A stretch of DNA of 63,007 nucleotides, filler included, from Hausera hauseri (lineage: Eukaryota): assembly GCA_046269625.1 (NCBI GenBank). It is 12 parts of 12 records of this genome, joined end to end, with 100 filler letters (N's around TTAATTAATTAA, not from the genome) between each part and the next. Parts side by side here need not be neighbours in the genome. Positions count along the whole stretch, not along the records: positions 31,647 to 36,849 come from JBJURY010308609.1; 11 more parts are not named here. The stretch is one strand, 5' to 3'. Made by a program: the position numbers and the translations under genes. Below the pieces are notes generated by a model. The model saw only the letters and a program-made list of their open reading frames with translations, made no database searches and was not told the DNA's origin. Positions 14,391 to 46,895 of the stretch are shown piece by piece. Each line of letters opens with the position of its first letter. Position 1 is the stretch's first letter.

Positions 14391-14403
14391 TGGAATTACT
14401 ATG

Positions 14404-15958
14404 CAAAAAGTCAAAGACAGCGGTCAGTTGATGCTGCAGCATTAAAGAAAAAAATGCCGCAAATATGTCATTGTGCAACTGGTCAAACAACCATCAAGGA
14501 GTTCCTGGAGTGCATAGAGGAAGAAACAGAGGGGATTCTCCAGGACAACATAGCTGAGCTCAAGGCCTTTAAGGCTAATATGAAACTTGAGGCCACATAC
14601 GTCAATGTTGATGACGAAGAGTCCAAAAGGGCCTTCAAGACCAGAAATGGTCCCATTTTTGAAGCCACCAATATAGTAGAATGGTTGCATGGAGAGCATG
14701 CAAAGCTGATCCGTGAAGCCGATGAGAACCAGAGTAAGAAGAACGGATGGACTCCGGAAACCATCACAAGATTGCTTGTGTGTGTTCACAAGTACTTTCC
14801 CATGCGGCGCAGTTCTTATGTTCAGCTCCCTGATAGGATCGCTAATAATAAAGCATGCACAAATGTCCTCAATGATGACAACATGTGTTTCATGTATGCC
14901 ATTCTATCAAAACTCGTGCCTGATCAAAATAATGCTTCACGAGTTTGGCTATATATAAATGTGCAGCACAAGTATAACTTCCAATGTATCAAGTTCCCGC
15001 CATCCATAGATGAAGTCAAGAAGTTCAGTCTCATCAACAATATATCCATCAACATCATTGGATTGGATGATGAGGACAAATTCTATTCCTTGCAGATATA
15101 TGATAATGTATTGGAAGATCATAGGGATCTGCTTCTACTAGACGATGGAGAAAAGAAACATTATGTTTGGATCAAGAACTTTTAACGCCTACTCAGATCC
15201 CAAATTACGAAACATCATGGACAAATAGAAATATGTAAACAATGCTTATCCCATTTCAGAGATGATTCAGCAGTGGACAGGCTTGCAGAGCACAAAATGT
15301 ACTGCAGCAACAATTACTGTATCAGGCCAGAATTCCACAAAGAGGGTTATATCGAATTCAAGGAGTTCGAGAAGAAGATTAAGGTCCCAATAGTTTTCTA
15401 TTGTGACTTTGAGGCGATCCTTCGTTCAGTTCAGAGTTGCACTGCCAATTCCCAACATAGCAGTACAATGGCATACCAATATCATGAATTTTCATCATAT
15501 TGCATATATGCCAAAGGACTGGACAGTGAAACATTTTCTATTCAGAGGGCCAGGTGCAGCACCACATTTCATGAAGAGACTGGAAGATATGTCTCATAAG
15601 TTTGGAAACATGCTTCCGCAGCATAAGGATACAATGAGCATGTCGTGGAAACAAGACGATGAATGGCGCAAGGAAACAACATGTTACTTGTGCGACAAGT
15701 CCTTTACCAAGGAAAATTGGAAAGTCAAGGATTACTGCCATTTGCAGGTGCATATCGAGGAGCAGCACATAATAACTGAAATCTTCGCTGCTAAACATGC
15801 ACATATGTGTTTGTAGTGTTCCATAATTTCAGTGGTTATGATTCCCATTTCATAGTCCGAGAATTAGGCAACATTGATGGTAATATAGATGTGATGTCAA
15901 ACAGTGAGGAAAAATACATCACTTTTACAAAGCATATGTGCCGCATCAGACTTCGCTT
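14404..15958 (+). mobile_element. Polinton family A pPolB fragment (terminal-protein region, vOTU-like region, exonuclease); decayed
   Basis: ORF 14454-15185 closely parallels 2342-3007; FYCDFEA; CYLCDKSF..KVKD; FHNFSGYDSHF. Confidence 0.92.
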
Positions 15959-16058: not shown

Positions 16059-19000
16059 CTGTTCGTAGTCGATCGTGGAGAGTCGCACCTATATATTCTC
16101 TAATTGTCCGGAATTGCCTTTCCACTATGCCATTGATGTTGTGATGATATGGGCTGGAATAGCATATTTTGATGTCCATTGACGCCGCCATATCTCTATA
16201 TATCTTAGATTCAAATGCTTTTCCGCAATTTGTGTGTATCTCTTTCGGTAACCCGAATTTGAGAATCCATGTCTTTAGCACGGAGTCTTTCATTGTAACT
16301 TCGTCCTGTTTTCCTATTGCTGACAGTGATATTTATCTGCTAAACTGGTCTATGATGGCCAACATGTATTTTTTCTTCTTCCAAGTTTCTTTCAATGGTC
16401 CACAAATATCAATTTAGATCTTCTCGAATGGTTCGTTTGCCGAGAGTCTCAGGGTCTCTTCCTTCGTAACCGATGTCATGTTCTTGTTTCGCTGACATGT
16501 CTCACAGCGTCCAATCACTTCCTTGACGGTGTCTTTCATAGTTGTCATATCGTAGTTATTGCTTATGTATTTTGTTACTTTTTCTATTTCGGCATGGGAT
16601 AGCATGGTGTGGCATTGCTTTATCATTTCTCCCCTCTTATCCGTTGGTATCCATATCTTGCCTGTTCTTGCTTCACTATGCCATTTTTTACTATGAATTT
16701 CCAATGCTCTTTCTTTGAGATGTCTTCCTTTATTTTTTCAATTTCTTTGCTGTCATTTTGATATGGATATGCTTCTGTCTATTCTACTGTGTTTATCCTC
16801 CCAGTCTCGATCTTACGCGTTTTGGCATTTTTGTGAGCTAACATGTATTGGCTGTATGTGCCGCAATTGGTTCGGGATAACATGTCGGCGTTTGCGTAAT
16901 CTGTTCTTTTCATGTATTCCCGTCTTATGTCTAGACTTGATAAATAGTTTATCCAGGTTTTAAATTATGCCGTTATCGGCCTTTTTGTTTTTAACATGAA
17001 GGTTATGGCCTTGCGATCCGTCTACAGTGTAAACCTTCTCCGACACAAGTAATTATTAAAATCTTGACAGAAGTAATACATAGCCAGCAACTCCTTCGTG
17101 TTATGCAATAGCCCTTTTCGTGATTATTTTCGTTACTTCAAATGCTTCGTTGCAAGACTCGGTCCATACTAGTTTTTTGTTGCTCAGTCCGCACAGCTTT
17201 TGTGGCATGCCCTTGAATAAATTTCCTGTAGTAATTGCAACTCCCTAAAAAGTTTCTCATATTTTTACACATTTTGGTTTCTCGAACGATTTGATGGAGT
17301 TCAACTTCAATGGATCCGTTTGTATGCCTTTGTTATTTACAATGTGTCCCAAGAATTTTACCTCCTTTTTAAAGATGTGGCATTTCTCTGGGTTTATTCT
17401 TAGTCCCGACTTTTTGATTCGATCTAGTACTTTCTCTGGTGTTATGTAATGTTTTTCTAATGACTTCGAAAAGATCAATATATAGTCCAGGTATAGTATA
17501 GTTTGTTCCATATCTCCCTGTACTTTGGTCATCAGTTCTTGGAATGTACCCGGCGCTGCTGCAATACCAAGAGGCATTCTGTTGAAATAAAATTGTTCCT
17601 GTTTAGTCGATAAAGCTGTTTTCAACTTGGATTCTTCCTCCAGTTCGAACTGGTAGTATGCGTTTTCTAGATCGATTGATGAGAAATACTTTGCCCAATA
17701 TAATTTATCCATTATTTCCATTATATTTGGCATGGGGTATGCTTGTCTTTCTGTGACGAGGTTCAGCTGTCTAAAGTCTAGACAAATTCTGACATCGTTT
17801 TTCTCTTTCTTTCAGACGCAGATCATCGGAGTATTCCAAGTAAATTACATTTCTTGATAATATTGTTTTCCCATTCGTTTTGAATGGTCTTATCTATTTT
17901 GCTTTCTAGATTCACTGGCTGTCTATGCGGTTTGATGTTAATTGGTGCAATTTTGTGTCTATTCTATGCTTGTTCAATGTTGTACAGTCGATATCCCATT
18001 TGTCCGCCATGGAGACTTCTTGGTTCTTCCGGACTATGTTCAATACGACTGTATTTTCGTTTATCTTCAAAATCTCCTCCGCTCTTTTAAATCGTTCTTC
18101 ATTAATCACTTTTCAGCCAAATTTTGCTTCTTAGTTGCATACACTATACCTTTGTTCCTCTCCGTCTTTCTGTCTCCAACTTAATTCGATTTCAAAAGTC
18201 TTTTGTAGTTCCATTCCTCCTATTATTTCTGGTCATATGTCTGTCACTACTATGAAAGTTACGCGCTTCTGTACTCCCTTGAGTTCCACCTTTATGGTCA
18301 GTTCACCCATGCAGTCTGGGGAGCTACCGTTTGCACAAAGGAGTATGATATGTGATTTCTCTAGCCGAAAATCTGGCAATCTTTCAAAAATCTGCCTACT
18401 CATCACGTTCACCGGTATCCCTGTGTCTAATAGGCAGTCTTCCCATCTATCTTGTACCTTTATTTTTATACCTGGCCGTCCTTATAGTTTATCATACGTG
18501 TTACTTTTTTACGACAGTCCTTCCATGGAAAAAATCCTCTCTTCATGGAAGCTCTCGTTTTGACTTTCTGTAAATCGTACTTCTTTGTTTCTGTTCCCAA
18601 ACATTTTCTTTTTTATGAATCTCCGTACCTTTTCCTCTGTTCTTTCCTTCATTTCTTCAATACCTTGTCCTTTCCTTTCAATATTTTGGGAGCCTTTGGA
18701 TTTGTTTAATGTAATGCCCCGACTAGATCCACTTCTGTCGAGGCTCTGCCTTTTGGGTTTGTCGATTCTGTGATGGATTCTTCATAGTGCTCATCAATAT
18801 TTGCAACGTATGCGTGCCTGCTGTTCACTCTCTCTCCATATCTTTTCTGACCATACCCCGCACGTTTGAAATTGTCTGTATACGTATTTTGTCCTCTTCC
18901 GCTTTTATCCAGTTTTGTATAGCACTCTTGTTCCCTGTGCCCTCTATTGTGGCATCTATTGCATTTTATGTTTCTGCAATTTCGTCTTATGTGTCCTTGC

Positions 19001-19210
19001 TGACCACACCCATAGCATATTATGGGTTTCCTTTCCGGGCAATTCCTGTTAATGTGACTGTTGTGCCCAACAAAGCCATGCTCCTTTGTAAATACACTGT
19101 TAATGTTTTCTCATGTTTTGTTAATTGTCCTTGTTTATTTGTCTTCGCAGTTGCCGACAGGTTGGTGCACTTTTGTCACTTTTGCCTCGTCTTGTTGTCT
19201 ATGATAAATT
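16059..19210 (-). mobile_element. Ty3/Gypsy retrotransposon of a second family, decayed: gag, protease, RT, RNase H, integrase
   Basis: Protease DCLLDTG (about 18410-18440); RT SIDLENAYYQ, RMPLG, YLDY(D)ILIFS, EKCHIFKKEVKFLGH; integrase zinc finger H-x4-H...CETC, core FGLPKEIHT, SSPYHHN.NGIVERQFRT. Confidence 0.92.
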
Positions 19211-19214
19211 CGAC

Positions 19215-20115
19215 CTTGAATCATCGGAAACTCATTTAATAATCCTTGAAGAACAGTTTCATATGTGTTGAACATGATTCTAATTCTAAGCTCAAAAGCA
19301 TAATGAAAAATAAAATCAACCAAATTGCCGATTCGGGTAAAAGTGACAGGGCCATCGAATAAACAACAAATCCCAAAGACCAGAATCGAAAAGCTGAGAA
19401 ACGTCGGTAGTATTTGTTATTTGAGTTTTGTAGCCGAATATTCAAAATATAGCGAAAGCTCCATAAAAACCAGTCATACAACAAATAACCGGAATAATAT
19501 TGTGAAATTTATTAAAAGAAGCCATTACAATTAAATCACCCCAGGTAGGACCGAGAGAATAAAATTTTTGTGTTGCAGCTGTAACCCAAACTTTAACTCC
19601 CAAAAGTGTTTTCCAATTCAGAACGATATAATATTTAATACCCTTCCAAGAGCCCGGCAAAAGAGATCCTTGAATAATTATTACAGTCAACAGAATATAA
19701 GGCATAACAGTAGTGACATATGATACCTTCCCGATGGTGTAAATGTACAGAGTTGAGAGTTTAATTTTCATTAGTTCTGTATGGCTGTGAAGTAAACTTC
19801 GACTTTTGTACACTTCATAAAATGGTCCTTGTATTGAAAGTTTTATTTGATGGAAGTAATATCCTCTTAACATTATTATCAACCGATAAAATTGAGGAAA
19901 TAACAAGTGCACAATCTGACTGTATGTTTCTGACGTGCATGTATTTTGATGGATATAGGATTTTAATGACAAATTTGGTGTGACAGATGAGGTTCATGAC
20001 GGTCTGTATTTCTATAAGCTAAATGAAAATACCGAATGTTGTCTCACCAAAAAGAGTTGACTACCACCAAAACAATAACACCAATGGTAGAAGCAAAGAT
20101 CGCCGGAAAATGTTT
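19215..20115 (-). pseudogene. SLC6 (Na+/Cl- neurotransmitter or amino-acid transporter) fragment, frameshifted
   Basis: GKVSYVTTVMPYILL, LPGSWKGIKYYI, VWVTAATQ.FYSLG..WG.LI.MASFNKFHN, LPESAIWLILFFIMLLSL, ETVLQGLLNEFP. Confidence 0.85.
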
Positions 20116-20218
20116 AGCTTGTGGACGCAGAAAAACGTACAATTCAACACTACAGAACTGTTTTTTGGTGTCAAAAATTTATTAAAAATATCTTTCTTTT
20201 AAAACTCTCGATATGTAA

Positions 20219-21592
20219 TTATTGTGGCAAAACTTTACATCGAACAATAATCGAATCATTTTTAATGAAACCTGGTATCATATGCATTTCGACATACGAT
20301 TTGTGGTAGAAAAATCCATCGGAACAATCATTTTCCTTTCTGTATGGACGGTTGTAAGCCTCTTTAGCATTCTCCATAAAATCCTCAATATCGTCGTCCT
20401 CATCGTCGTCCACAATTTTATCATTGACCATTATTATTGGAATACCCATAACTCGAATATTACCATCCATTGTGCATTTTTCACAGAAATTGTTTATTCG
20501 AATATCCACAGACTGGCGACTAAGTTGTCTAGATAAAATACATTCAAGAGTGTTCTGATTGACTATATCTATTTGAATAGTTCGTTGCATTGGCCATTGT
20601 AGAAGGTCATCATATTTCCCTTTCATCAATGAAACTCCAAACCAAACTCCAACTGTTTCATCCGTACCAAAACGAAGTCTCAATTTGTATCCATTCTCAC
20701 AGGCATCACTGAAGAATGGTTCACTGACGTGCCATTCCTTTTTGTTGTATTTCATGGAGATGTCATGGATTTTCCAGTAGAAGTCATTTTGATTTTTTGA
20801 ATTGCTGCTTGAACGTTTGTTGGGCTCGGTGATTTGTGTCGTTGAATTTTGATCTTGTTTGCTTTCCAATGTGGTTACTTTCTTTTTTAATATTAGCACT
20901 TCAGCCTAAACAGAAAGTAACACAGGTTATCGATAAAATGTCTGAACCTGATGGCGGTCCAGTTCCATTTCGGTTCTGGTTTTGTTTTCCATGACTAATG
21001 CTGTTAGAGAATCGAGACATTGCTTAACAAAATGTTACCATAAATTTTTTGACAAATATAAAATTTTAAAAAGCTCGATATTTGACGTTGTCACCAATTA
21101 GATAGAAAGTATACATGCCACTAAAATGATTTCACAAACCTCAATAAATTCTGGAGAACTACAAAAATGTTACCTCACTATTCCTTTGCTCATCACCTGA
21201 GTATACTTCAATGTTTCTCTTTCTGAAATCTTCTGTCCTCATGCCATTTTATATGACAATTATAGACATGTGATATGTCAATTTTTGATTATGAAAATTT
21301 TGTAATTTTACATGAAAATTATATATTAAATGTCACACACAGTTTATACATTGGTAATAGAAATTCGCTCATATATATAAAACACGACATGTATTCTTAT
21401 TGACAAAAAACAGAATTCAATATTTTTGAAAATTTATTTAGTACATACTTATTTGACTAACCTTCAACGAATCCAAAGAACACAACTCATCATCTGTTTG
21501 ATTCTCATTCAATGTGGAATTACTATCATCAGCGTTATGTTGTCCTGCAGCACATACATCCATATGGTGGGGTAATCTTTTCAACTGGCATT
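20219..21592 (-). CDS. TRAF-family MATH-domain protein; 3' exons of a spliced gene (last exon 20905-20219)
   Basis: FYWKIHD, SEPFFS..GYKLRLRF, SLMKGKYDDLLQWPM, GFIKNDSIIVRCKV. Acceptor TTTCTGTTTAG at 20906 with a ~42-nt candidate intron; upstream coiled-coil exon and a zinc-finger-like LPHHMDVC near 21560. Confidence 0.85.
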
Positions 21593-22512: not shown

Positions 22513-25500
22513 TCATGCGTGTGCAGGTTCGTGTCTTATTCCAAACGCCAATGTCCGTACGCCCACCCACTTACGCTTATTATCATTGCATGATAAAGCG
22601 ACTTTTGTATTGATCACCGTATAATGCCGGTGCTCAATTGATCGCATGATCGTTTGTGACACAACAGTCTTTGATTGGCCTTCGTCTTCATAGATACGAC
22701 GATAATCACCGTAATTTATTTCCGTTGGGGCCAACTGAACTCCTTTGGCGCGCATTTCGGTCGACCGTTAGTTAAAAGGCTATAACAATTTGGCCGTAGA
22801 AATACCCATTCCTGATACCGGAGCTGACCTTCACTTTTATCCTTAAAGCAGCGATTTTGTTTGTGACGCGTTGCTGTACAATGGATGATTCGGTGGGTAA
22901 TTGGACGTGTCCAGTAATCCGTCTGCCATCATTTGCAGCAGTAGTTGTTCGCTATTGACTTTTTCCAGTTCCAAGAAAAAACTATGTGTCACCGGCAATT
23001 ATATTGATTCTGCATCCGCCGCTTACGCCAAACATTTACCGGTATCATGCCAAATCGCGATACTGCAGCTTACACATCCGCAACTTGCTCCGATCCAATA
23101 ACACTTGTCCTATATAACTTGGCCGGACCAGTACGAATTCTTTTTTGTTTAAGAGTACGGCAACCAATCCATCAGCAATGTTCATTGATCGCCTGAACTG
23201 CTCCTTGCTCGTGTACGTGACCAACCGCTATGCGCTATTGCATAGGTGTACATTGAGCCGCTTTTTCAGATTCTCTACTGTTTTTCCGTAGAGAGAATTG
23301 TTTTTCAGTTTTTAATAGTTTTTTTCAAACATCGTACAAGCTGCAGCTCGTTTATCCGAATTCCGACTGATATATGCCTTGAATATCGGAGCCTGCGCAA
23401 ATCGGATTGAGCGATGCAGCTGTGTGACGCGTACACCCAACTGTATGTAAAATTGCAACAGACGCCAATGAACTATGTAGTTTTGTTTCGGTTTTTGCGT
23501 CATATGCAGCTTCTTCACCTTCGAGCCCGATGGACATTGGCTGATTGGTGCGACCAGCAGTTCATCCAGAAAGTCATGCAGTTCATCTGGTACCACGAGA
23601 TCGACTTCCATCAGGTACCCGATTGAGCTGTTTTCTGTTGTGTCTGCTCTCGGAGGATTTTCCAGTATTGTGTCCAGGTCCTGTCTGTTGACTATCCACT
23701 CAAATGAACCGCACGGCAAGGGTTGTGGAAGCGCCCAGCCATACAGGTTATTAATATCGATATACAACAGTGATATGGTATCATCACTGGTTACGTGATG
23801 CTTGTTGACAAATGTCATGCCGCTACAAATACCAACATCAAACATTCGGTACATTTCCGGGTCTTGCAATACCTCGATATCCCGATCCAGTGACATCAGA
23901 GCTGATGTCCAACTTATTCCGGGTATTGAGTAAAAGTTTAGTAGCTCCAGTTTATCTTCTGCCAACGCTTTAGCTCGAAATGTCTGAAACACATCAGCTA
24001 ACAGGTACACATCCAATTTCAGATACTAAAGCATGTACTCCAACAGGTTTCTGCAGCCAAGCTATGCCCAAAACGACTCTGCTCTGTGATATTCTTCTTC
24101 TGCGATACCGGACTACTGCGGTGATAATTCGTCTGTCGTCTGAAGCCGCTCGTACGATATCGCAGTCATATGCGAATATGCCTTTGCTATGCGCAATATG
24201 TACAGGGAACTGAGTCATTGTTAGCGGCATATCTGGTAAAGCATTTACCAGCTTCGCTAGAGATTCATTTAGAAATTTCAATAAATCAAGGAAGCATACC
24301 TGCAAACAGTTTGTACGTACAGATAGTGACAGGTATTTCTCCATCGTAGTCGGAATTATGGATAGTTCCCAGTGAGGAAATCCACTTATTGCCGTTTCAA
24401 AATATGGTGACAATCATAACCCCTGAAGTTATAAAATACCATAGATAGAAATGGTCGCACACACCTTGCCAAATTGCATGAATTGCATGCAGCTCCCAAG
24501 TATCAACCGGTAAAATGATCGTGATCCGGTACGAACCGTTCCTCTGCAACGAAAGGAAATATTTTGTGGCACGGTGACATTTATCGGTGGTTGCAAACAT
24601 CAACGGTTCATATTTGTCTGTCCACATCAAGGGTTTATTGCTATTTCTACTGTACCAGGATGCGATTCCCGTTTCTACAATTGTTTCCAACTGATGCAAG
24701 AAATCACGGATCCAGTTCAAGCCGTTGAAAACGTAATTCCGCGGTTGACCAGTGGTTTTTATTGGGACCACCAACATACCGACGGCGATTGGAACGTGCT
24801 TATGATAGTATACATTGTGCCGTGGTAGAAAGGCTTCAATATCGGCATATACCACGTATGCCGGACTGTCGGATATTGACCAATCACTGACTCTCAGCTC
24901 CTTTTTGACTGCCATGACGTAAATTATGGTTCCCGAGGAATTTTGTCTGCACAGAGTCACATGTTTCTCCCATGTTGTTTCTGATCTGAATCCGTGCAGA
25001 CATAGGAAACACCATTTACATCTTATACGCTTTTCGATGAAATGGTCATGTTCCATGTTCAACAGTCTGTCTAAATTTGTCACGGCCACGTAATCGAATT
25101 TTTCCTTTTGCTCTAACAGCAACAAATATATTGGACGGCCATTTGGGTTCCGATTACAATAGATTATATCCACATGAGGATTTTTATCAATTTCTTCACC
25201 CGCCGGTATTTTTATTATTGTGTTGTATCGGAACACGTTGATTGCTAGTGTCAGATTACGCCGTTCAAATGTCGAAATGGATTTCAGTTTCATCGGCATC
25301 CAGCATCCATCGTAATTTAATTCGGACAAATATTTCTGACACTGTTTTGGACTATATGCACTTGGTCATATTTCAATACAGCCAGAATACTTTAAAGAAA
25401 ACAGTATTCATCGTTAGAATTTTTTACATTCACTACCGCCAGAGACTGCTTTAGAGCTGCAGGTGTCGTTATGAGTAATTGTCCAGACAAATATATTATG

Positions 25501-26426
25501 TCACACGACTTTCTTATGATAAAGCCGAGAGTCACAATTTTTATAATTCGCCATCCACTACCCCTTTCGATATAGTTGGCGATTTTCTCCTCGAGCTTTT
25601 CGCCTACATCGGCAATAAAATCTTCGGCGTATGGTACAGCTCGATGTGACAGGTACAGTTGTTTCGTGTCACCTTCCAAATTTTCGAATTCTGCAAGTGC
25701 ATAATATTGCACTTTGCAGTGATAGTTGAATTTCTCCAATTCTGATTCAAACCGATTGCGGACATTTTGCGGAACATGTCTCAATTGCGATCTGTTCAGA
25801 TTGTACTTGACTGTAATATTGGGAATATTGGCATCCTGTTGCTCCTGTTCTTGTTGTTGTTTTTCTTGTTGATGCTGTTACTGCTGCTGCTGCTCTGTAG
25901 TGTTTCTGATTAAGTCGTCAAGACTTGTTGAAGCCTGACGTTTCTTACTGGTTGCTGAGGGGATGCTGCTGATGTTGCTCTTAATTGAGTCCATACCTAG
26001 CTGTTTTTCCGACCACGTAAACTTGTTTACGTGGTCGTTGAGCAGATTATAAAATTGTTCATAGTTGATTTTAGCAACTATTAAACAACCGGGGCAAACG
26101 TAGGCCCGTTTATTGTTCAGCGTTTTGATGCCATCATACTGATCCATTGTACTATGACAACCACTAACGTTTTGCACTTTATTATGGCACTAGTGTGGGT
26201 ATGTGGTGCAATGCTCAACGATCATCTTCTTAGACTGCGTAAACCGACCAAGATGATGCTTGTGCACCTCATAAAAGTAGGCGTACGGGCCTTGGAAAGA
26301 AACATCACAAGTTGGACACACATACGTGTCCTTTCCTCCTGCGTTGTAATATTTCTCCATCTGTTGATGGCACTGATCCTCCATAGATATGCTCGAGACG
26401 CAAAACATGTGATATTGCTTACATTT
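22513..26426 (-). mobile_element. Polinton/Maverick family B pPolB, near full length, frameshifted
   Basis: ERGSGW; AVVNVKNSNDEYCF; YADIEA; DVYLLADVF; motif A YIDINNLYGWA; KNNSLYGKTVEN; RAKGV; KVALSCNDNKR; clearly divergent from family A. Confidence 0.92.
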
Positions 26427-27659: not shown

Positions 27660-30600
27660 TTAATGCAACATGCTCGTGAGATAGCGTGCTTATTCCATCA
27701 CCCAGCATCTGCCTTTTGTCATCCATCCAATCTAGGATCTTCTGTAGTGTTATTGTCTCAATGTTATGAGCCCTAGACCAGATCCTTCGCATCTCTGATA
27801 TAATGAGTCTGCTCATGCAGAACTCTTACATAGTCATTGAAGCCAAGCTTCTTGGCTAAAGTGGCCCTTTAAACCCCTTTAGCCCGCTACTTTGACCACA
27901 TACATCAAGTGCATACATTTGGACCTAAGAGACCCATTCACCTCATCTTTGAATTTCCCAAGGACATTTTTGTTGGTAATTGAATGGTTGGAATGATCCT
28001 TCTGATAGTTATTATATGCTGAGCCAACTTAACAAAGTCCTCATAAATTTCATCTTTATGGATCTGATAGATGAAACTATCAGTATCTATGTACATGTGC
28101 TGTATGGACTTGAATTTTGGGACCATGATGTCATAGTGGAATTTGTATATCAAGGTCTTTGACAGGTCTAGTATTGCAATACCCACGTATATGGGCTTGT
28201 TGAATTGCAAAGATGTTTTCAGTACATGGATGCTGAAAAAGTTCTCCGCATATATGGTGCTGCTGTGGAAATAGGGCTTGGCCATGAGCATCTTCGCCCG
28301 TTTCGACTCAGAGACCAGTTCGATGTTGATCCTGTTACGAATATTCGCCATGATCTTGCCAAAAAAGCTGTTATTATATACTTTGAACTGGTCGCTCTTG
28401 GCATTGGTCCGCAGCTCCGTATTGAGATCTATGTACGGCTGCAGACAGTTGGACTGACTGAAATGCAGGGCCCGATGGATCTTAGTAATGCGGAGTCCAT
28501 TCTTGACCGCCTCCTAGAAATTGATGTAGTGGACTATATACCTCTCCCTACTACCCAGATGGCAGAGCAGCTTTCTATGCTTTCCATGAGGCGGAGGCTT
28601 GCTCTCACGGAGGAAACGCAGCTGTTGATGCCTTGCATGGATGGAAGCCGGATATTCCATATCCACCTCCAGTATGTATCCCGTATCTCCAGTGGGATCC
28701 AGGTCCAATATGAAATATTTTCAGAATTCTCGACCCATTTGAAGTTATCATATAGCAGTGGGGCGCTCATTGCCCATCCATACAAATTGTTGGCATCCAG
28801 GTATGATATATATGAGGGTTCCTTGGATGGATCATAATTTGCCATGTATTTGTTGTTGTCCTCGCTAACCGGTGAATGGCCTGGCATATTCCACCTCTAA
28901 TGCCTCTCTCGATCATAAGGATCATGTCGTAATCCGTGATGATCTGCAGCCTTATGCGGGTATATCTCAGCATAGCTGCCCAACTCATTCCTGGAGCCAT
29001 AAAGAAATAAGCCGGATCCCATGCATGGCTCTTCGTTGTAACATACCTGAAACTCTCAAAGACTTCCATCAGCAGCAGAACGTCCGTCTTGACGTATATA
29101 TCGCTGCATTCCCCTACTGTTCGGCATTGGAATGCATGTCAGACGTTATGAGCATGCTGTTAATCCATATCACTGATATCACAATCAGAGAGGATATTGT
29201 AAAAGTCCTTCTTGGTCGGCAATAACGTCTCATCCAGTGTTTTCCATAAAGTTATGTAGTCATAGGAAAACATGCTTTCCTCTTGACGAGGTCAAAGGTC
29301 ACGGGGAAGAACCGCTTCGCCTCCTTCAGTTCTTCTGCAGGGAGGTTCTTCACTAAACTGTTAAGTGAAGACGACATGAGATGGAAACTGTCTGTGAAGC
29401 GAAACCTGGTTTTCCCAATATGCTTCGTAAAGGTGATGTACTTCTCACTGTTGAGAATCACCTCAATGTTTCCTTCAAAGCTGCCCAGTTCCCAAATAAT
29501 AAAATGGGAATAATAGCAACTGAGATTATGGAATACTACAGGCACATATGTACATGTTTTGCAACGTGTATTGCAGTTGCTGCATGCTGCACCTCGATAT
29601 GTGCTTGTAAAATGGCAATGATCCCTGACTTTATAATTCTCTCCCTAGTGAATGCTTTGGAGTACAAGTAACATGCTGTTGCCTTGCGCCAGTCAACTTG
29701 CTGCTTCGACATGCTCATTGTATCCTTATGCTGCTGCAGCATATCTCCAATCCTGAGCCATATCTTCAAGTCGTTTCATGAAATGAGCTGCTGCACCTGG
29801 ACCTCTGAATAAAAATGGATCACTGTCCAGTCCTTTGGCATACATACAATATGATGAACGTTCATGATATTGATATGCCGTTGGGGTTTAGGACTGCAAC
29901 TCTGAACTGGACGCAGGACGGCTTCAAAGTCACAATAGATAACTATTGGGACCTTGATCTTCTCGAACTCCTTGAATTCAATGTAGTCCTATTTAGGAAA
30001 ATCTGGCCTGATACAATAATTATTGTTGCAGTACATCTTGTCCTCTTTTAGCTTCAATGCAGCCTCATCACCACTGAAATGGGAAAAGCATTGTTTACAT
30101 ATTTCTAGTTGTCCATGATGTTTAGTAATTTGTAATCTGACAAGCCGCTCAAAGTCTGATCCAAGCATGTTTCTTTTCTCCATCGTCTAGTAGAGCAGAC
30201 CTCTATGATCTTCCAATTCAACATCGCATATTTGCGGGGGATAGAATTTGTCCTCCTCATCCAATCCCAAGATATTGATGGACCTGTTGACTTTTACAAA
30301 TTTTTTCACTTCATCTATGGATGGAGGGAACTTCATACACTGGAAGCCATAGTTGTGCTTCACATCCTTATATAGTCAAACTCGTGAATCATGATTTTGA
30401 TCCGTTAGGAGTTTGGATAGAATGGCATAAATGAAACACATGTTCTCGCTATTATGGACATTGACATGCTTTTTTATTAGCGATCTAATCAGGGAGCTGA
30501 ATATATGAACTACCCCGTATGGGAGAGTACTTATGCACATACACAAGCAATCTCTTGATTGCCAGAGTCCATCCGATTTTCTTATCCGGGCTCTCCCCGG

Positions 30601-31646: not shown

Positions 31647-34600
31647 AGTTAACTCACCCCAACATATAGCTTCTGTCATGTTAAACGTTCAAAGATATCT
31701 AATAGGAGGAACAAAATTGGTGAGTATGATATCGTATGAAGTAACCAAAAAAGTTTCGTCAAACTCTTCACTCGATTAACAGTCATTTGAAGAATTAAAC
31801 CACCAAAAAGTGAAACCTAGTTACAATTATTTTAGTTTAATACAAGTGGTAACAGAATACCAAAAGGGAAGAGTACATCACTACTGTTCCTATCATATAA
31901 AAAATAAGAGTATCATGTCCAAATTGATATAATGATAGGAAAAATATCGAAATTGAAAATCAATTCCTTCCAAGGAAACAAAAATATTATTGCCCTAAAG
32001 AAATACTATGGAAAGTCTATGCTAATATGAGGGGATGGAAAGAATTACCTAAATCCGTAAAAGACGCTATAGGTGGATTGAATAAAAATGGAAGTGAGGA
32101 TAAACCATAAAAAACCCGATGGTTACTTGAGTCAGATTTAATAGAAATAGTACAAGAGGATATTAAAATGACGCCAATGACGACAACATCTGAAACCAAT
32201 ACCATTGCAAGCATAATAGACTCCATAGGGAAATACGATTACGCGATAACTAACCAGGTAATTCCTTATTTTAGGATAATAAATGCTCTAAGAACACAAC
32301 AAAGCAGTCTCCCGTCGGCCCGAGAGGAACTGGACCGAGTAATGCACAGGTTGGTGTATCAGCCATTACATGAAACTATCATCAATTCGCAGAAAATATG
32401 CCCCCAGGATCAAGATGTTTTGAACACCATAAAAAAGTTACGTCTTATAGCAAATAATACGGAACAGTGGTTAAACTACATGGAATCTAAAGATGACCAA
32501 TCTACTAAAATACTTCACGATGACCCACTTACTATCATACTTTGTATATTTGTAGAGACCCTACATGAATGGGACAGAAACATTATTAATTGCTTACTGC
32601 TAGAAGGTAACATAGCTCAATTATCCAACGAGAAACAAAAAGACTTCATGAAATTATATACAATCCTATATGAATCATAGTTCGATCGGCTAAAACAGAA
32701 AATTGAAATAAACCTTAAAGAATCGGACTATAGATAGCATCCTATATACTTCTTATAAAATTTCAGCCAATAAATTATTATCCTACACACTGAATGATTT
32801 TCAAACCAAGGTGTACTAGGAAGGATTTCATTTACTTCAACAAATTTTAATGGAAATATCCCTACAACCCATATGGTTACAACCTACCAATATCATGATA
32901 GGAACTTGGAATGATATCATGGGAACACCAATCCACAAATCTATATGTCTAAAACATGAATCACTGTTAAAAACTCGACTGGAGACCCATTCGGTATTAC
33001 AAATAATACGTTGCCTTCGGTCATTCGGCCCATTAATAGAAAAATACCCACTAACCCACGAAGAAAACATAATATGTGGAGACAAAACTCAATATCAACC
33101 TTTATTCGTTGGAGGCCGTAGAAAACGTATTTTGATTACTCGCTTCTTACGAGGAATACCATTACTATTTTTAGCAGTGGACGTAATTAATCTCCTCCAA
33201 AGAATTTTCCCGGACCTAATAGCAAATAAACCACCAAAAAGAATTGCCAAACTGGCCAATAGATGTCTTGGATTATTTAAGAGTTACTGAAAAGAGCTAA
33301 TAAATAAAGTCCACACATGCTCCTTTATGATCAATTGTTGGATGACATATACACTAACGGCAATAAAAGATAAACTTCCTCATGAACAAATAATTACTTA
33401 TGAAGAAGAAAACGCACGAATATTATGGAATAATTATCTGAATCGGGATGTAAATACACCGATAACCCCGTTGGACTACAAAGATATAAATAATTTCGAT
33501 ATGATGAATCCAAGTGGGTTTTCAGGTAGATTAAATGCAGTACGATACCATCTAATATTTTGTGAGTTAGATGATAACGACGAAATAGCTAAACCATTTA
33601 AAGAAAAACGGGAAAGATTAATAAGTAATCATCGATTAAAATTAGATAAAGAAAAGAAAGAAATAACAAATATGATGAAGAATTTACGACGAATTAACGC
33701 CTTTGAGAAACGTATCATGCGTATCTACTACAATAGAAAATCATCTAAAATGGATGAATGTGAAGATACATCGCATAGTAGCGATGACCACCATGAGAAG
33801 AAAGGAGATATTAATATTAAATCACCAACAATAGTTAAGATACAACACAAAACATTTCAATCCAATGCCAATTACGACAAAACCGTGGTCAACAACAACA
33901 TCAATCCAGATGAACCAATACCTAATAAGATAACGGAAAAAATAGTACAGAATGAAGTTGCTGACTCCCAACAAGTAACAGAAGAAAATCAATCTGGAAT
34001 AATTAGTAACGGGTTTACCTACTGAACATTAATACTGCTCATTATACCATTCATATTATTCGGAACAGCTGAAGCTCCTCCTACGACGGTAAATACCACA
34101 CGGGAAATGTCACCAGTTTGGTTATCATTATTAATTCTAGTCAATTTAATGTTTCTCATTAAGAAGTCTGAACAATCAAATAATGACGAGAACAAGGAGA
34201 TTACTCCAACTGAAGGACACACCATAATGGAAAAAGTTCCAACCATTAAACCAAAATATACGAAACGTCAAATATTAGCAAGGATGAACGAAATATCGAT
34301 TAATAAATCTTTATTACCCAATGGCGATAAGAAAGATATCGATTCCACAAGCGAATATTGCTGCAGACGAACAGAATCAAATGAATCCCAAAACCCCGTA
34401 CCGAATCCATACGTATCACTATCTCGACAAGTAGAACGTTATGATAGAAAAAGATTACAAGGAGATAAACGAGAAAATCAAATCTTTATTAGGAATTTTG
34501 ATCAAACACTAGAATGGTCAAAACTAGATAGCCCGTCCAACTAAACCTAGAGACTTATGCGAATGAACCAACGATAAATCGCTATAATATACAATTGATA

Positions 34601-36849
34601 GCTCAGAACGAAGAAATTACCACTTATATAAATGAAGAGATTTATTCTCCGTTCGACGTACTCTCAGAAGAGACACAGATAATCATAGCTTTGATAGCAC
34701 AAGGAGTAGGCCCAATAGCAGAACACCCCTATTTAACCACTAACAAAATAATTCCAATACTCCGTGACATAAACAAGCTTCGCAAAGACCGTTATGAATT
34801 ATCAACTGAAGAATATGAACTATATACAGTAGCCAACCGTTTGGCCCAATTACCATTAGACAACAGAAACCCCGTAGCAATACTCGAACACTTACCGGAC
34901 AAACGGACAATGATTAACGATCTCAGACAAGCTTATGTAACTCATTTGAAATGGGAAAAGGAAATTAAACAATCCGATCTTATCCGAAAAGTTGCACTAT
35001 TAATGTAGCGGAATGGAATACAACTCTACCGAAGAAATAACAACTGTTTATCAAAGTAGCCAATACCAAAATCGTTTATGGGAGACACCCAACCATATTA
35101 GAAGAGAACTTATAACCTTCTACCTCGATATGTACAAGAAATATTTCGAACAATACCAGAAAGAATCAAGGTATGATCCTTCCACTCACTCCATGAGAGA
35201 TAACTTATTGCTAATCACCAGTTTTTAAAGCCAATTTTTTAAGGCGGCAATGCACGAGAGTAGATCATTCAGAGAGCGTTTCGAAAACGAACGAACCAAT
35301 TATAACTCAGGATTGAGAATATTTGATGAAATTATGAACGTATCCGGTTTAAAGCTTTCATGGTATGACCCTATGCATGAGTTAGCCAAAACTTGGAATT
35401 ATAGATGTGGAATAAAATCCATCCACTTCGAGAATCAAAAGCACGAATTAATAATTATGCATAAGTTACAACTATCAACTATATCACAATTGTTGGAAAA
35501 AATACGATTAATGGACTTATTAAATGTAAGACATGATATCAGTGCGAATGAAACACTCGTAATCGGATCCAGCATACATTATGAACCCTTATTTATAGGT
35601 AGCAGAGCTGAGCAAAACTTTTTAACAGGATTTCTCCGAGGCGATAAAGCTCCTTTGCCAGTCAGTCACATTAAAAGAGAAATTGAAAACGAAGTACCTG
35701 GAATAAAAGATTATGTTGATGACCACGAAGTGTATATTGTAATTAATTATCATGTTACTTTGTATGAATGGTTTGGATTAGAATTGAGACAACCATGTAA
35801 AGATGACATATATACACCATGTATTATAGCCTACTTAATAATGGCATTAAAAGATAAGCTTGACGAAGAAACGTTACAAACTATAGAAGAAAAAGAAGTT
35901 AAAATCTATGGAATAAATATTTAATACGAAAATTAAATCAAGAACTCACTAAACAGGATTACCATGATATATACTCATTTTGTAATATAAATGCAGAAGG
36001 ATTATCTGGCCGAATAAATACTATCCGATACCGCCTTGTATTTTGCTCATTACCAATACCAAATGAAAAAGCCGAAAAGTTTAAATTAGAAATAGAAAGA
36101 ATAATAGCAAAAAGAAAGTCAATTGAACGAAACATAATCAATGATTGGATAAATTTTATGACTAAACCCTTTGCTTTAGCAGCACCAATGCTTATACCAT
36201 TATTTCTAATTAAGAAAGCTAACGCAGAAACGACTATCAACATTAAAGTACCAGCTAACAAAGCAGTATTCTCTACAATATCCATACTAGAATACACTAT
36301 TTCCGCAATAATATTGACACGTCTAGTCAGTCTTATAACAGGAGCAATAATATTCTTCAACAAAAAAGTCAACCGATATAAGCGATTCAATTTCACTGGA
36401 CAAGACAACCAGTGGATTCATGATTGGAAGTAGCTTAATACCCACAGTTAAAGCCAGAACATGGAACAAGGAGGCATATGCATATAATCGAACGATGGAT
36501 ATAATATCACTAATGTTACTAGTATCATTCGTCCTTGCATTAGTTAGCTATATCGCCATATTAATCAAAAGGATTTATAAAATACGGAGAGAAATAAGAA
36601 GAATAGAGCAATTAATGCTGTATGTGGAAACAGAAAATGAGAAATCACCTCCCAAGTATGACGGCGTTTTAGGCAAGTCACCACACGTTTACAAACGAAT
36701 AGCAATACCTGTGGCCTTGTCAGCACTAAACGCAATCTCAACTGAAGCAAGTCTGTACGAATACGCAGTTATCCCTGCCTTACCAGTTGTGGATTACAAA
36801 TCATTTTATTACTAATGTTTCTAATTGGTTTAGCCAGTAGCACTGTAGT
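31647..36849 (+). pseudogene. Decayed giant polyprotein-like ORF of unknown type (probably from a mobile element or virus), with two diverged copies of a ~500-aa domain and signal-peptide/TM cassettes
   Basis: Nine consecutive + strand ORFs. 32850-34544 share one frame interrupted only by single TGA codons. The strand is visibly A-rich, and there is internal protein-level similarity between about 32140-33700 and 34600-36150. Confidence 0.7.
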
Positions 36850-40291: not shown

Positions 40292-42171
40292 GTTAGCTTC
40301 CCACGAAGATTAAAACCATGAAATACATAAAAAGGAATGTTTTGATTACGATTGTAACCAAAGCAATCACTGAAAACAGAACTGTGGATTTTTGCCAGCA
40401 TTTCGAGCTGAGGAAATGCAGTGGCAGGATGACTTAAAATGAAAGATATAGTCTCTGGTATTATTCTGGGACAAACTTCAAGGGTCAGTGATTTGAGGGG
40501 AAGTGTGGCGGGTAATTGGTCGTCATTTTCTGCATTACTGTCAAACGGATTTATGAGTTTATTCCCAATGGGATATGGCCACTTCCTTGGAGATCACATC
40601 ATGGGATCTTAGACATTAATAGCATGGCGAAGATGAAGTGATATGAGTTTCGGAGTGATTTTCATCAATGCGGCTACTCCTCTACCTGTTGTCTTACAAA
40701 TAGGTAGACTATGATCTGACGAGTCATGAAACCCCAAATTATGAATTTCATCACCAGTCAGCATTGACTGAAACGGATCTTGATAACCCAAGATGACACT
40801 CTCCAATTTCTGCATAGTAACTTTGGAGTTTGCCAAAGAAAGCATTAGGAAATTCCTTGAGTGTGAAGCTGAAAGAGCAAGATGATTTAACGAAGAATGC
40901 GAAGACAGAAGAATAGCAGCAACATCAACCTCTCCGAATTCCTTGTTGATAGATAACACCAAACTTTGAAGATTTCTGAAACATCGATGACCCTGATCGA
41001 TAACGAGAAAGAAATTTTCAAATAAGCCTTCGACTATTCTAGCGGACACTAATTCTAATCTGTTGAGTTGTGGTGACCTAGCTAAAGCAGTAAATATGCG
41101 AACATATCGCATTCCTCTGATTGGGCCGATACAGTTGTTCATGAGAAAGGACTGAATCTTTGGTGCTTGGAAGTTTGTAAATGGATCAGGAGAGGAGAAC
41201 TTTACCCATTTTAAATGGAGATATTTGATATTTTTCAACCGTGGAAGATTCTGGATACAAACTGAAACGAGATCCAATTTGGTCAGATTGTTTATCGTTG
41301 TAGGAATAAAAAGTTTCTCGTGGGATGGCGGAATCAGAGTCACTAAATTCACAATCGGACTCTGATTAATTGGTTGAAAGGGCGGCAGACCATGGCCGAT
41401 TGGCACGTAGTCCATTTGTTCCGACGACCCAAACCACGAATAATTGAAGAAATTCATATGTAAATCTCGATACTGTTGCAAACTCGCAATGTTGCATAAT
41501 GATTTCAAATCCATTAGTTTATTGTACATGCCGTATTTGGAAGGAGACTGGCGTAAATCGGGATTATCGTAGAACTGTTGTAGAGCACCTTGGTTGGTAA
41601 TACTGGAGCTTTTCACAATAAACGGATTGGCGTATTCATCTTCCCAACTGTACGAACGATTACGAAACATACCGTGAAATTTCACCCTATTCAGTGAGTG
41701 AACAATGTGACTCATCAATTCCAAATCCATTATTTCAACGGAACGTAATTTCGTACATTGCCGTAATGCTAACATAATTCCACTGTACGTTAAGGAATTA
41801 TTTATTCCGGGAACATCTTCGATTTTCCGTGGGTAAAATCCGAGGATATGAGTAACTTCAGGAGTTTTAATCATAATTCGTTTCAATACGGAATCATTAA
41901 GGCAATCCGGTAAAAATGCAAACGGAAGGCCACAACTGAAATTGATCCGTTTAACCATTAATAAATGATTCTCGACAGATTCTTTAAAACGCTTATTGAC
42001 TCGTTGAATACGAAATAAATCCTGAATGGGAAGGTACTGAAAAATTCGATAGTAAATTTCAACTGGGAGAAGTTCGAGATTTTTCGTTCCAACAACGGAT
42101 TCCCGTAATCGGCACTTGACTTTTTCCAGTCGAGCACGAGAACGTAATGGGTAACGCGGTTTGAGAAACAT
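40292..42171 (-). pseudogene. FBXO38: FBXO38-like F-box protein: 520 open codons, then two in-frame stops, then truncation by an LTR
   Basis: F-box LPVEIYYRIFQYLPIQDL; FBXO38 signatures G.FRNR, LHLKWVKF..P.PF..F, MNNC.GP; the same frame continues past TAA/TGA (LKSLTLEVCPRI) up to the LTR at 40291. Confidence 0.85.
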
Positions 42172-44129
42172 TGATTCATTTTCTTGAATGTCGGATGATT
42201 TTTTTGTCTGATGGTTTTCGGTAAAGACGTTCTTTGATGGTTTAATAATTTTCTTTGATTGTTTATGTTTGGACTTAGTGATTTTATGACGTGTATGGCG
42301 ACTGTAAACAGATTTATTCTAACGAGATGTTGATGGAGTGGAAAATGGGATATTTCTCGTTTCTAACTGTGAAATCATCTCAGTCGTTTTGGACCGAATC
42401 GAATTGTAAATTCTGAATTATGACACCATTGTGGGTAGGTTGTATAAATTCATTTGATCAAAAAACAAAATACGAAGAACTTGCCAAAATTCCTTTATAT
42501 GAAATCGTCCTAATAACCTTTACTAACTTTTACAAACAATCAATATATTAACTATCAATAACTTTGCAGTAATTTATTTTCAATTTCTGTTATATTGTAA
42601 ATGTATGCATTACTGACCAAGATAACTGAAACATTATTATAAATATCGCCTCTGACTGACTGTAGACTTATGTTAATAAGGGAATACTCCGCTGATGATT
42701 TCATTTTTTCTTTTATTTTTGGCAACTAAATGATTTATCATGAAAAAGTACATTTAACAAATCTTCCCAATGGCTTTGAAGTATGATGCAAAGATATTTG
42801 TTAGCGATTGGACCTTTCAGCTTTGATACAAAACCTCATAGAAGCACAAATTGACACAGAAACGGTGTAAGAAGAATTTTCTAGATTTCAGAAATAAAAA
42901 TCGATGGCCTCCAAATTATGGTAAATTCGTACACCATATGAAATGGGACATAGAGCGATCGACGAAGACTAATTGAAGAGCTGAAAGAAATCCAACCATG
43001 TGCGATTATTCTAATGCTGTAGGCTAATTGAATATTTCGGGACGCCATCATGTTCTCAACACGGTGATTTAGATCTTTCAGCAGGCCATGTAGTGCATCC
43101 CAGTAAAAAAAGACAGTCTGAGAGAATCACCATAGTCATCTGCAGTGGTGCAGCCACACAAGCACAAGACTCAAGCTGTATAAAAGTCCCGGGGTGCATC
43201 AAAGCCATTGCAGTTTATTTTCATTTCAACAGAGGTAATTGTGTTATTTGTGCGGTACACGTACAGAAAAATGAGGAGACCATTTGTAATGACATAAACA
43301 TCAGAGCAAGTAAATAAAGAAACTTGCTTCATTCCCCCAACCCATTTTGGCCAGACTGTTGGCATTTTCAGATAGGAAGTCAATAGCTCTTTGTGAACGT
43401 GAGAAAAAAGGTGAGAAAAGAAGTGCTAAGCAGGGTAAAAAAAAAAGTTGTGTCTGCGCACAAGTGGGTGTGTGTGCTTCTGTTTAGATCACAATGACTC
43501 ACCGTGATCAGATAATTATCTCCAAGGGATGTTTTCCAGGTAGAACTAATGTCAGAAGGTACAGACAGAAAGAACAGAGAAGCAGAACTGATCGTGTATT
43601 TCCCTAAATGGATGCTGATGTTTTCAACAAATGAAAAAATTCAGACAGCCTGAAAAATGGGAGTAAAAATCATTTTACTCTAAAACTCAAGCCTAAGAAG
43701 CGGGTAAAGCAGCGTTCATTGACCACCAGCCACCACTTTGCATGACAAAACTTTTAAACAAAGACGATCTGTTAGCTCCTACAGTTTGTCTTGAGGATGA
43801 CTCTTAGCTAACAACATACTACAGTCTTATTTTATGTTCTTACAGTGTGGTCCTCACCTGACATTTCCCTACTCTTTCTTCAGAANNNNNNNNNNNNNNN
43901 NNNNNNNNNNNNNNNNNNNNNNNNNNNNNTTAATTAATTAANNNNNNNNNNNNNNNNNNNNNNNNNNNNNNNNNNNNNNNNNNNNGATTTGGTTATTTTC
44001 GACACTATATAATACCCGTATCTCCGTCGGATATTTATCAGTCAGCCTAAAAACCATAATTGGTGTCAGAAGTATACAATAATATTGGTTTGAATAATCC
44101 TTTCAATTTGTTGCTGTCGTTAATCGTAC

Positions 44130-45860
44130 ATGGATGAATCTAAACTTATTATTACTCTAAGCAATATTTTGGCTATGACAATTTTAAATAATCTATTCCG
44201 AAAGACGCTATTAGAAGGCCAGGTAAATCTCTATGTTATCAGTTACAAGCTGTATACAACGGAAGTGGTGTGACAATAGTTATTAGTCTTCTGTTGGCAC
44301 TGATTAACTATCAAATACTGAATTTAACACGACATGGAATTAATGCTGCTACTATCAATTCTAAATCCAATGCAAAGGATCGACAAGCTGTTATTGCGGA
44401 TTTAACAACTGACACATATTTCAACAAAGGTTCTAAAATTCGATTGTTGTACGTTACTTCAAAACAACGCCAAACTGGCACATTCCGCGATATCGTCGGC
44501 AAATTTGTTAAACGAAACAAATTAAATTATTTTGTTATCGATGAGGCCCATTGCCTGTCGGAATGGGGGCACGATTTCCGGCCGGATTACTTGAAATTGG
44601 GCAAACTCCGACTGGAACTATTGAAGGATGTTTCGTGTTTGGCATTGATAGCAACTGCGACTGGACGTGTGGAATTGGACTTTGTCACTACGTTGTGTTT
44701 TGGTAATCATCGAGTGTTTAAAATACCGGTTTTGCGAAATAATTTGTTTTATGATATTCAATTTACCGATTTGATTGAAGTCAGAGAAACACACGTTTGA
44801 TTATCTGATGAAATCAATGGGAAATCCCAAATTGCCTTTGGATAATTGGAACCCAATTGGTTCCTGCATTGTGTACTGTCGAAAACGTCATGACTGCGAC
44901 GAAATATCGGCAGTATTGACAAGATTACGTCTTGAATCAAAAGCATATCATGCTGGTCTCAAAGATTCACTGAGAAAGATATCCAGTCTTACTGGTCGAA
45001 TGGTAAATTTCCCGTCGTTGTCACAATTTCTTTCGAAATGGGCGTTGATAAACCGAATGTCAGAGCGGTTTGCCACTGGACAATTCCGAAAAGTTTGACG
45101 GCGTACTATGAAGAATCCGATAGAGCCGGAAGAGATTGGAAAAATCTTGGTGTCGAATTTACTATGATCCGAGTGAACACAATAAAATACTTTGTTTGAT
45201 CAACATGGGTAAGAGTAAAAGTAAAGGAAAAAAATCCAATGGCTCACAACAATGCAAGAATACACAGAACAACCGAGCTGTCGACATAAACGACTTGCCG
45301 AACATTTTAACGATAATTTCACCAATTGCGAAACACTGATTTTTGCACGAACAAAAATGGCGCTAATATGTTAGCATCTCGATTCGGATCAGTGAAATGT
45401 GGTTTGAAACGTTCGGCAAAGGATACCCGTTTGGATAACGATGATGATGGCGATAACTATTATGTTCGCAAAAAACGATCCATTTGCTGATTGGAAATGA
45501 GAAAAATTTACTTGACAAACCTGATCTATCGGAAATGGCCCATTTTGTCCGACAGGTATTATGGAAACGAACGAACGGAGTTCTGAAAAAAAACGATAAA
45601 AATCGAGCTCCAGACGGAACGTGTTTAATCGATCCCGGCAGTGAAGCTATTGTCGGATTAATCAGATCGTTTCGCCACCAAAATTTGAATCGATTAATTC
45701 AAGATATTTGAAAGAAATTCGAATTATTTGGTGAAACAATAACCGATGAAACAATTCAGTTAACAACGAAGTATGAGTATAATGTTCTCCAGACGTCAAA
45801 GGTGCCTTGTGTATAACGGATGAAAATGCTGCAGATAATTGACACGATCACGAAATGCGG
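44130..45860 (+). pseudogene. RECQL5: RecQ5-type helicase, decayed and apparently intronless copy
   Basis: [69 protein letters not shown], and a KIX/IRI-like EYNVLQTSK tail; deletions and frameshifts. Confidence 0.85.
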
Positions 45861-45957
45861 ACAGAGTGTTGATTAAATTCGAGAATGCCTACAGACCGAA
45901 TTGAATTCTGATTCAACAGAGAAAACGATATCAAATGTGCCACATATCGGTTACAGA

Positions 45958-46101
45958 AATTTCATCTGTGACAACTGCAAACATCATCGCTATCCACGGT
46001 ATGGTGAAATCGGATTTTGCAAAATAATCAGTTACCGTTGGTGGCCATGTGAAATCATCCATCCACGAAATTCCCCGATGAACATTTTAAAGCTTAAACA
46101 G
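45958..46101 (+). pseudogene. NSD1/2/3-type PHD end plus PWWP domain fragment
   Basis: FICDNCKHHRYPRYGEIGFCKIISYRWWPCEIIHPRNSPMNI matches NSD C.DC..GKKP.Y.EIVWVK.G.YRWWPAEICHPR.VP.NI. Confidence 0.75.
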
Positions 46102-46137
46102 CCCGATGCATATACCAACGGTCACCTAACTAAATCG

Positions 46138-46530
46138 GATATCATATCAAGAGTACAATGGTATGCAACACCTCCAACTGGCTATTTGGTACCTTTTTCT
46201 ATGACATCGAAAAAGGTCGTTCTCACTGCACTAGCGAATGTTACCTGTAAAGATTCGATCATTTATATTAATGTTTTAAGGCAAATTCAACAATATTCCT
46301 TTTCCGGTCGTGATGCTACGGACAGATGTTTTGATATGCCACATAACTTTTTGATCGATGAATCTGGAAATATCTGTGAAGGACAAGGATGGAACTTGCG
46401 ATCAGCGACTGTACTACAATGGAACGATCAAACTATAGCTATTGTTTATATCGCCAAACGATTGATCGCATATGATGTTGAACATAACCATCTAATCAGC
46501 AACTATACTCTTTTTGTTCAGCAGGATCTT
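46138..46530 (+). pseudogene. Peptidoglycan recognition protein (Amidase_2 fold) fragment with a non-catalytic pattern
   Basis: IISRVQWYATPP, LRQIQ, DMPHNFLIDESGNICEGQGWN, WNDQTIAIVYI, LISNYTLF; the Zn-binding HHT motif is replaced by LTAL. Confidence 0.75.
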
Positions 46531-46895
46531 GGTCGCAACAAAGTAGAAATCCTGAAATTATTATCAATGGAATACCGCATAACGTTTCTATTCACGGCGA
46601 TATTTGTAGGTTGTTTATAAACAATGAAATCATTTCAGTTCTGAAACTACATCCATTGACCCCTATGCACTCATTTCAGCCGTTTCACTATCACGTATTA
46701 CCGCTACAAAATGTGCAATATCAATTAAACAAGCGAACGTATCTACCGAATGTATTACGCGGTTTGAGGGGAAACTTGGCACCCTGCATTTTCGTGCCCG
46801 CCATGCCGGGGCGGAGGTTCCGACCGCCAACCCTGCGCCGGTCGGTCGGACGGCGCCTTCTGCGTCGGCCCCACATCACGCCCCAAGGCCCACCA

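Follow-up and report, generated by a model that had tools for sequence, protein, structure and literature searches.

The contig JBJURY010308609.1 of Hausera hauseri (assembly GCA_046269625.1) preserves the remains of a single long polyprotein in which two paralogous domains stand in tandem; very probably it is a copy, now decayed, of a mobile element present many times over. The repeated domain may be a reverse transcriptase (RT) that has diverged far. From the order of motifs in its sequence we tentatively read the element, with limited confidence, as a large Penelope-type retroelement whose membrane-anchored polyprotein had two RT-like domains, one bearing the motifs and the other degenerate. 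The analysed window, 63,007 nucleotides in length, consists of twelve contigs of 4–7 kb each, separated by 100-nt spacers that are all identical and carry stops in every frame; neighbouring contigs are taken as unlinked, with no linkage across the spacers. Positions 31647–36849 are exactly one whole contig, from spacer to spacer. Its ends are assembly gaps, so that the termini of the element lie outside the sequence, and 71 matching contigs extend past them.

The plus strand of the contig holds eight of the nine stop-to-stop frames of at least 100 aa and is A-rich (A 40%, AT skew 0.215), as a preliminary description of this DNA had reported in placing all long open reading frames (ORFs) but one on this strand. 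Joined across their breaks, the frames form a path (31997–36812) of 1,586 codons with seven stops, versus about 118 expected for such composition, and five frame junctions, the last of which was placed by judgement. The single decayed polyprotein proposed earlier is thus upheld. Along the path, hydropathy placed hydrophobic segments in pairs downstream of each block, and the first of each pair ends, by eye, in a small-residue pattern resembling a signal-peptidase site. The hydrophobic regions behind block 1 and block 2 gave no significant mutual alignment (Z 1.3). In the terminal part (36161–36849) there is a junction near 36400–36440, and the frame decays at the contig end.

With X placed at each break, blocks 1 and 2 aligned over 504 columns with 26.2% identity (Z 55). 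The alignment score was 412, versus a mean of 43 and a maximum of 67 in 200 shuffles, and local protein alignments between the blocks had E values of 6e-18, 4e-17 and 1e-6. All four motif pairs that had been quoted from the two blocks, including AIKDKL/ALKDKL, were present. The protein-level alignment and the duplication claimed earlier therefore stand; the domain size of about 500 aa does not, as the unit spans about 545 aa, with starts near 31997 and 34485. DNA likeness between the blocks is reduced to short matches spaced 2,483–2,518 nt apart, from which we infer an old duplication, maintained at the protein level. The best-conserved part of the repeat, its last 80 or so residues, is 40–45% identical between the blocks and predicted to be helical; it sits where the thumb would be, if the RT reading is right. 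No other copy was seen inside the window. A third copy of the C-terminal part of the domain, considered for the stretch upstream of block 1, was unsupported (3.5 bits, E 3.2).

A profile built from three rows was searched against 1.84 billion proteins, in line with the profile search proposed in the preliminary description, and had a sole match, P0001 (E 2e-13). This is an unnamed, unannotated ENA protein of 622 aa, a singleton from a 2,053-nt contig, and it spans the linker, including its two hydrophobic segments, and continues through the first 340 aa of block 2. Over those 340 aa it is 46% identical to block 2, versus 21% for block 1; the linker aligned to it with Z 11. P0001 is open through the sites of three window stops and two junctions, and contigs of other copies carry small indels near several junctions of this copy. 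Because P0001 is open there and other copies differ by indels, the breaks are lesions of this copy, not recoding.

Copies of the element were abundant in run X1. A total of 6,087 X1 contigs match the contig and fill 30 of 30 bins: 265 at 99% identity or more, 778 at 95–99%, 1,961 at 90–95% and 3,083 under 90%, so that 5,044 of them are less than 95% alike. X1 was the one public run that contains the sequence, with 45% of its words, and it may be the source of the window itself; no RNA data set was listed as containing it. Summed X1 depth on the contig was 41–4,521, versus 3.6–5.8 for the single pieces listed; one of these has a 362-nt exact match to the window. Depth does not give a copy number, and the many diverged copies are read from the spread of identities. 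A single-copy host gene is excluded because many diverged copies occur in the run. Among the copies, 1,802 places are variable, with transitions 2.7 times transversions and strand-symmetric. Single X1 contigs at 35780–35810 had a mean depth of about 780, versus 4–6 for unique pieces, and suggest a young, near-identical subfamily, depth again not being a copy number. Depth climbs from 5′ to 3′ along the contig (rho 0.81), a slope suggestive of 5′ truncation, which would produce it, and explained equally well by poorer conservation of block 1.

The AT skew of the contig (0.215) was compared with those of the window's Gypsy element (0.295), polymerase B frames (0.17–0.18) and F-box frame (−0.012); the likeness to the window's mobile elements suggests a mobile element and does not tell its class. 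A host gene family without introns, specific to the lineage and encoding a membrane protein, that had expanded with many pseudogenes is a very unlikely source of these copies. Such a family could accommodate blocks that are alike as proteins without nucleotide likeness, and the 30 best-supported differences on the path, which fall at codon positions 13/13/4 (p 0.07), are compatible with selection in a family. Against it, the strand skew is as in mobile elements and unlike that of the F-box frame, the single contigs of about 780-fold depth point to recent mass copying, and no homologue was found among the proteins of other animals.

Neither a failure of the blocks to align nor a match to a single-copy host gene or known domain, which the preliminary description had named as fatal to its account, was seen, and its uncharacterised domain family is still one to which no library or fold search gives a name. 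Pfam, NCBIfam, PHROGs and PADLOC held nothing at cut-off for the repeat domain. The best Pfam rows, RHH_3 (E 0.006) and DUF7638 (E 0.02), concerned one block each and lay below cut-off, and no paper naming DUF7638 was found; the best NCBIfam E value was 0.074 and the best in PHROGs was 0.007, for P0001 only. There was nothing under E 0.04 among PDB sequences, no family in the ESM Atlas for domain pieces, and no relative in word-index protein searches, in viral, metagenome and prokaryote locus scans or in plasmids. Among individual candidates, L001 was a chance nine-residue match, L091 was likewise due to chance, and L092–L096 proved to be one single sequence with a stop inside the match. The NADAR (YbiA) domain was also rejected: a 53-sequence profile found no domain in six frames, P0001 scored E 0.27, and hhalign probability was at most 2.3%. 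Structure prediction of each block, also proposed earlier, was carried out with AlphaFold2 on three-row alignments and gave low-confidence models (predicted local distance difference test [pLDDT] 49 and 41); fold searches with them were uninformative, with every Z below 8 and every Foldseek E at 0.25 or higher. A fold match to LINE-1 ORF2p (Z 7.2) rested on a generic three-helix arrangement ahead of the motifs described below and was not counted.

These searches also bear on a viral origin. The contig could derive from an endogenous virus that was later amplified, either a large positive-strand RNA virus with a nidovirus- or flavi-like polyprotein or an integrating DNA virus; we regard this as quite improbable. 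Internal signal-peptide-like and membrane segments are typical of large positive-strand RNA virus polyproteins, and the repeated signal-peptide-like and membrane segments in one frame, together with the A-rich strand, would fit such an origin. On the other side, no helicase, protease or RNA-dependent RNA polymerase family or motif was found in the contig, itself partial, BFVD gave no match (best E 0.68 and 0.25, from the low-confidence models), and IMG/VR held no true relative. Thousands of diverged contigs would, moreover, be unusual for a non-retroviral RNA insertion.

The case for an RT comes from block 2. The preliminary description had recognised no RT motif in the contig, which is too strong a statement, since YVDD, a candidate motif C, lies at 35712. 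Ahead of it in block 2, motifs 1, A and B′ can be placed in the order 1, A, B′, C, as in Penelope-type RTs (Table 1). The region of motif 1 has P, I, N, L and R common to block 1, block 2 and P0001. Two aspartates are candidates for motif A, 91 and 77 residues ahead of B′; the farther one, in RIFD, is kept in P0001, whereas that in SWYD is not, and block 1 lacks both candidate sites. With B′ to C at 38 residues and A to B′ at 77 or 91, the spacing fits the Penelope-like elements as drawn in figs S1 and S7 of PMC8557442, if an insertion in the fingers is allowed. Among 20,000 shuffles, motif C occurred in 2,382, B′ with C in 21, A with B′ and C in four, and the full set including motif 1 in none. 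Apart from C on its own, the chain is found nowhere else in the window when all six frames are read. By eye only, a likeness to the DK motif was noted in P0001, as were resemblances to motif D and the thumb.

Table 1 Features of the contig, in window coordinates.
Feature	Position	Strand	Remarks
Whole contig, very probably one decayed genomic copy of part of a multi-copy element	31647..36849	+	Both ends assembly gaps
Upstream stretch, probably the same decayed frame	31647..31996	+	
Block 1, ~545 aa	31997..33665	+	Stops 32108, 32678, 32817, 33288; junction near 32718
Linker: charged low-complexity stretch, then two hydrophobic segments	33666..34484	+	Stop 34023
Linker signal-peptide-like segment and second hydrophobic segment	~34026-34073 and ~34110-34160	+	Both kept in P0001
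Block 2, ~545 aa	34485..36148	+	Stops 35006, 35226; junctions near 34531, 35040, 35904
Candidate RT motif 1, P-x6-K-L-R-K	34754..34786	+	By eye, against fig. S7 of PMC8557442
Two candidate motif A aspartates, RIFD and SWYD	35313..35369	+	Block 2; neither in block 1
Candidate hairpin and motif B′ (HYEPLFIGS)	35577..35603	+	3 residues shorter than in published Penelope-like elements
YVDD, candidate RT motif C	35712..35723	+	38 residues past the B′ glycine; block 2 only
Best-conserved repeat part, last ~80 residues	35906..36148	+	40–45% identical between blocks; predicted helical
Three further sets of signal-like/membrane segments	~36161-36340, 36405-36580, 36700-36760	+	Within 36161..36849

Several results weigh against reading block 2 as an RT. 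The motif patterns were loosened after the sequence had been seen, which makes the shuffle counts optimistic; YxDD alone arose in 12% of shuffles, and each motif likeness is weak by itself. P0001 ends ahead of B′ and C, so that YVDD is read from this copy only. No RT family in Pfam scored on the contig, and the PADLOC RT profiles scored on none of seven pieces, while the window's Gypsy RT scored E 1e-32. There was no RT among matches to PDB sequence profiles at E 10, a profile of the B′–C–thumb region found one protein and no RT among the 1.84 billion, and the ESM Atlas gave no family for the piece with A, B′ and C. Motifs 1 and A are separated by some 130 extra residues, the strongest conservation in the repeat falls outside the would-be palm, and the block 2 model (pLDDT 41) has no strands. 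Within the partial contig, no GIY-YIG domain was found on the path or by Pfam, and no hammerhead was found by Rfam at E 0.1 or by core matching (0 of 8 matches inside the contig). The GIY-YIG endonuclease is absent from the EN-minus (endonuclease-lacking) Penelope-like clades.

Two further comparisons were made with known RTs. Alignment by hhalign with retron-like and Gypsy RTs returned nothing, and the positive control failed too. Motif scans of IMG/VR with four patterns returned 0, 26, 0 and 1 loci, none of them a Penelope-like element. Four IMG/VR loci (L067, L070, L071 and L089) hold a retron-like RT frame of 270–405 aa and are unrelated to the contig.

To the Hydra, Nematis and Naiad clades of Penelope-like elements, in the material shown by Craig et al. 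(2021, PMC8557442), the contig is alike in the order and rough spacing of motifs 1, A, B′ and C, in domain size once the insertion is allowed, and in high copy number in invertebrates. It differs in being unseen by RT profiles, in its tandem domains, in the roughly 130 extra residues, in the membrane segments behind each domain, and in showing neither GIY-YIG nor hammerhead. A Penelope-type element may nevertheless be giant and carry membrane segments, because the Terminons do so: these are giant Athena-type elements of rotifers, up to 40 kb, with coiled-coil and transmembrane ORFs, as far as described in the sections consulted of PMC6431247 and PMC5537684. Giant size, co-oriented coding, coiled-coil or transmembrane parts and 5′ truncation would be shared with Terminons as these accounts present them; Terminons have separate ORFs, a recognisable RT and hammerheads, whereas the contig has one frame. 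A literature search of limited coverage found no such element with a second RT, whether in tandem or inactive.

If the Penelope-type reading holds, the element would have spread by way of RNA. After an old duplication within it, the two domains would have diverged, block 2 keeping the aspartates and block 1 losing them; block 2 would then be the polymerase itself or have descended from one recently, and block 1 a dead paralogue retained to bind RNA or to serve as a scaffold. The hydrophobic pairs may thread the chain into the membrane of the endoplasmic reticulum; signal peptidase would then cut it there into anchored modules, much as viral polyproteins are processed. Target-primed reverse transcription often leaves copies truncated at the 5′ end, and the present copy would have died and then drifted. 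That the element stands for an undescribed class of giant animal retroelements, with a single membrane-anchored polyprotein, two tandem profile-invisible RTs forming an active-plus-scaffold pair, and a young high-copy subfamily, seems improbable to us.

The preliminary description had instead taken the region for the accessory part of a giant retroelement, by analogy with the Burro Gypsy elements of planarians, or of an endogenous virus. Its multi-copy element is supported; its tie to Burro and Gypsy is not, as Pfam found no Burro domain in the contig, and the strand bias offered as a sign of Burro does not set it apart, an A-rich strand being common to the compact Gypsy and the Polinton-type polymerase frames of the window. 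Should the RT-like motifs of block 2 prove real, "accessory" may even be the wrong word for the region. We nevertheless consider it possible, only a little less so than the Penelope-type reading and on the whole somewhat unlikely, that the contig is the accessory region of a giant long terminal repeat (LTR) element of this Burro-like kind. The repeat would then be a new non-RT domain family, YVDD a chance occurrence and pol located outside the contig, with membrane-anchored modules that act on the host cell or in the assembly of particles. Many copies, an A-rich single frame, the failure of every library to detect an RT in the contig and the commonness of Gypsy relics in this genome all suit such an element. 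In the part of PMC6431247 that treats it, Burro (GYPSM1) has an ORF1 of 4,873 aa with named accessory domains and about half unassigned at first annotation, an internal region of up to 25 kb, and decayed pieces in Dugesia japonica. The contig resembles this in its very long single polyprotein (at least 1,586 codons here), large unassigned parts, many copies and decayed pieces. Of the AIR1, Smc, MATH, BIR, BCL2, ankyrin, dUTPase, env, gag and pol of Burro, as listed in that description, Pfam found none in the contig, and the same description, in the part seen, has no tandem 545-aa domain. Likewise, no gag (or zinc knuckle), protease, RT, RNase H, integrase or LTRs were found within the 5.2 kb of this partial contig. 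A Burro-like origin also leaves the ordered RT-like motifs unexplained, and a planarian host is not established by the window.

The other contigs of the window carry F-box, MATH, SNF, DEAD and PWWP pieces together with Gypsy and polymerase B relics, and point to a repeat-rich animal genome. The Gypsy element (16059–19400, minus strand) is a decayed, compact gag-pol of ordinary size with an A-rich coding strand, zinc knuckles and an RT at E 1e-29; RNase H and integrase were recognised by eye. Pieces resembling Polinton-type, protein-primed polymerases lie in five contigs, at 1770–3460, 14376–15816, 23312–25877, 27938–29138 and 56130–56960. Among these, Pfam DNA_pol_B_2 matched only at 23315–24025 (E 7e-5), and the remaining four are presumably of Polinton type. 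A decayed stretch at 60500–60950 (minus strand), for which Pfam gave no significant match, we take to resemble a hAT-family transposase.

Pieces of host genes also occur. An uninterrupted F-box frame of 569 aa (E 9e-9) lies at 40609–42318 on the minus strand and is presumably FBXO38-like; with the MATH and SNF pieces at 19442–20905 it points to an animal host. At 44192–46620 (plus strand), intronless pieces of unrelated host genes stand close together, namely a DEAD/RecQ-like helicase and a PWWP domain, with a weak amidase/PGRP-like piece (E 0.1) in the same frame as the latter; these fragments were possibly captured or retroposed.

The contig represents an abundant repeat family with a 545-aa domain that none of the libraries searched contains, and repeat annotation would leave such a family unclassified. 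If the region were instead Burro-like and accessory, the domain would be a new cargo family. If the Penelope-type reading is true, a tandem pair of active and dead RTs in a membrane-bound polyprotein would be an arrangement that we did not find described. Eukaryotic retroelement RTs would then exist that escape standard profiles, which would bear on the completeness of the RT census and on the Penelope–telomerase branch.

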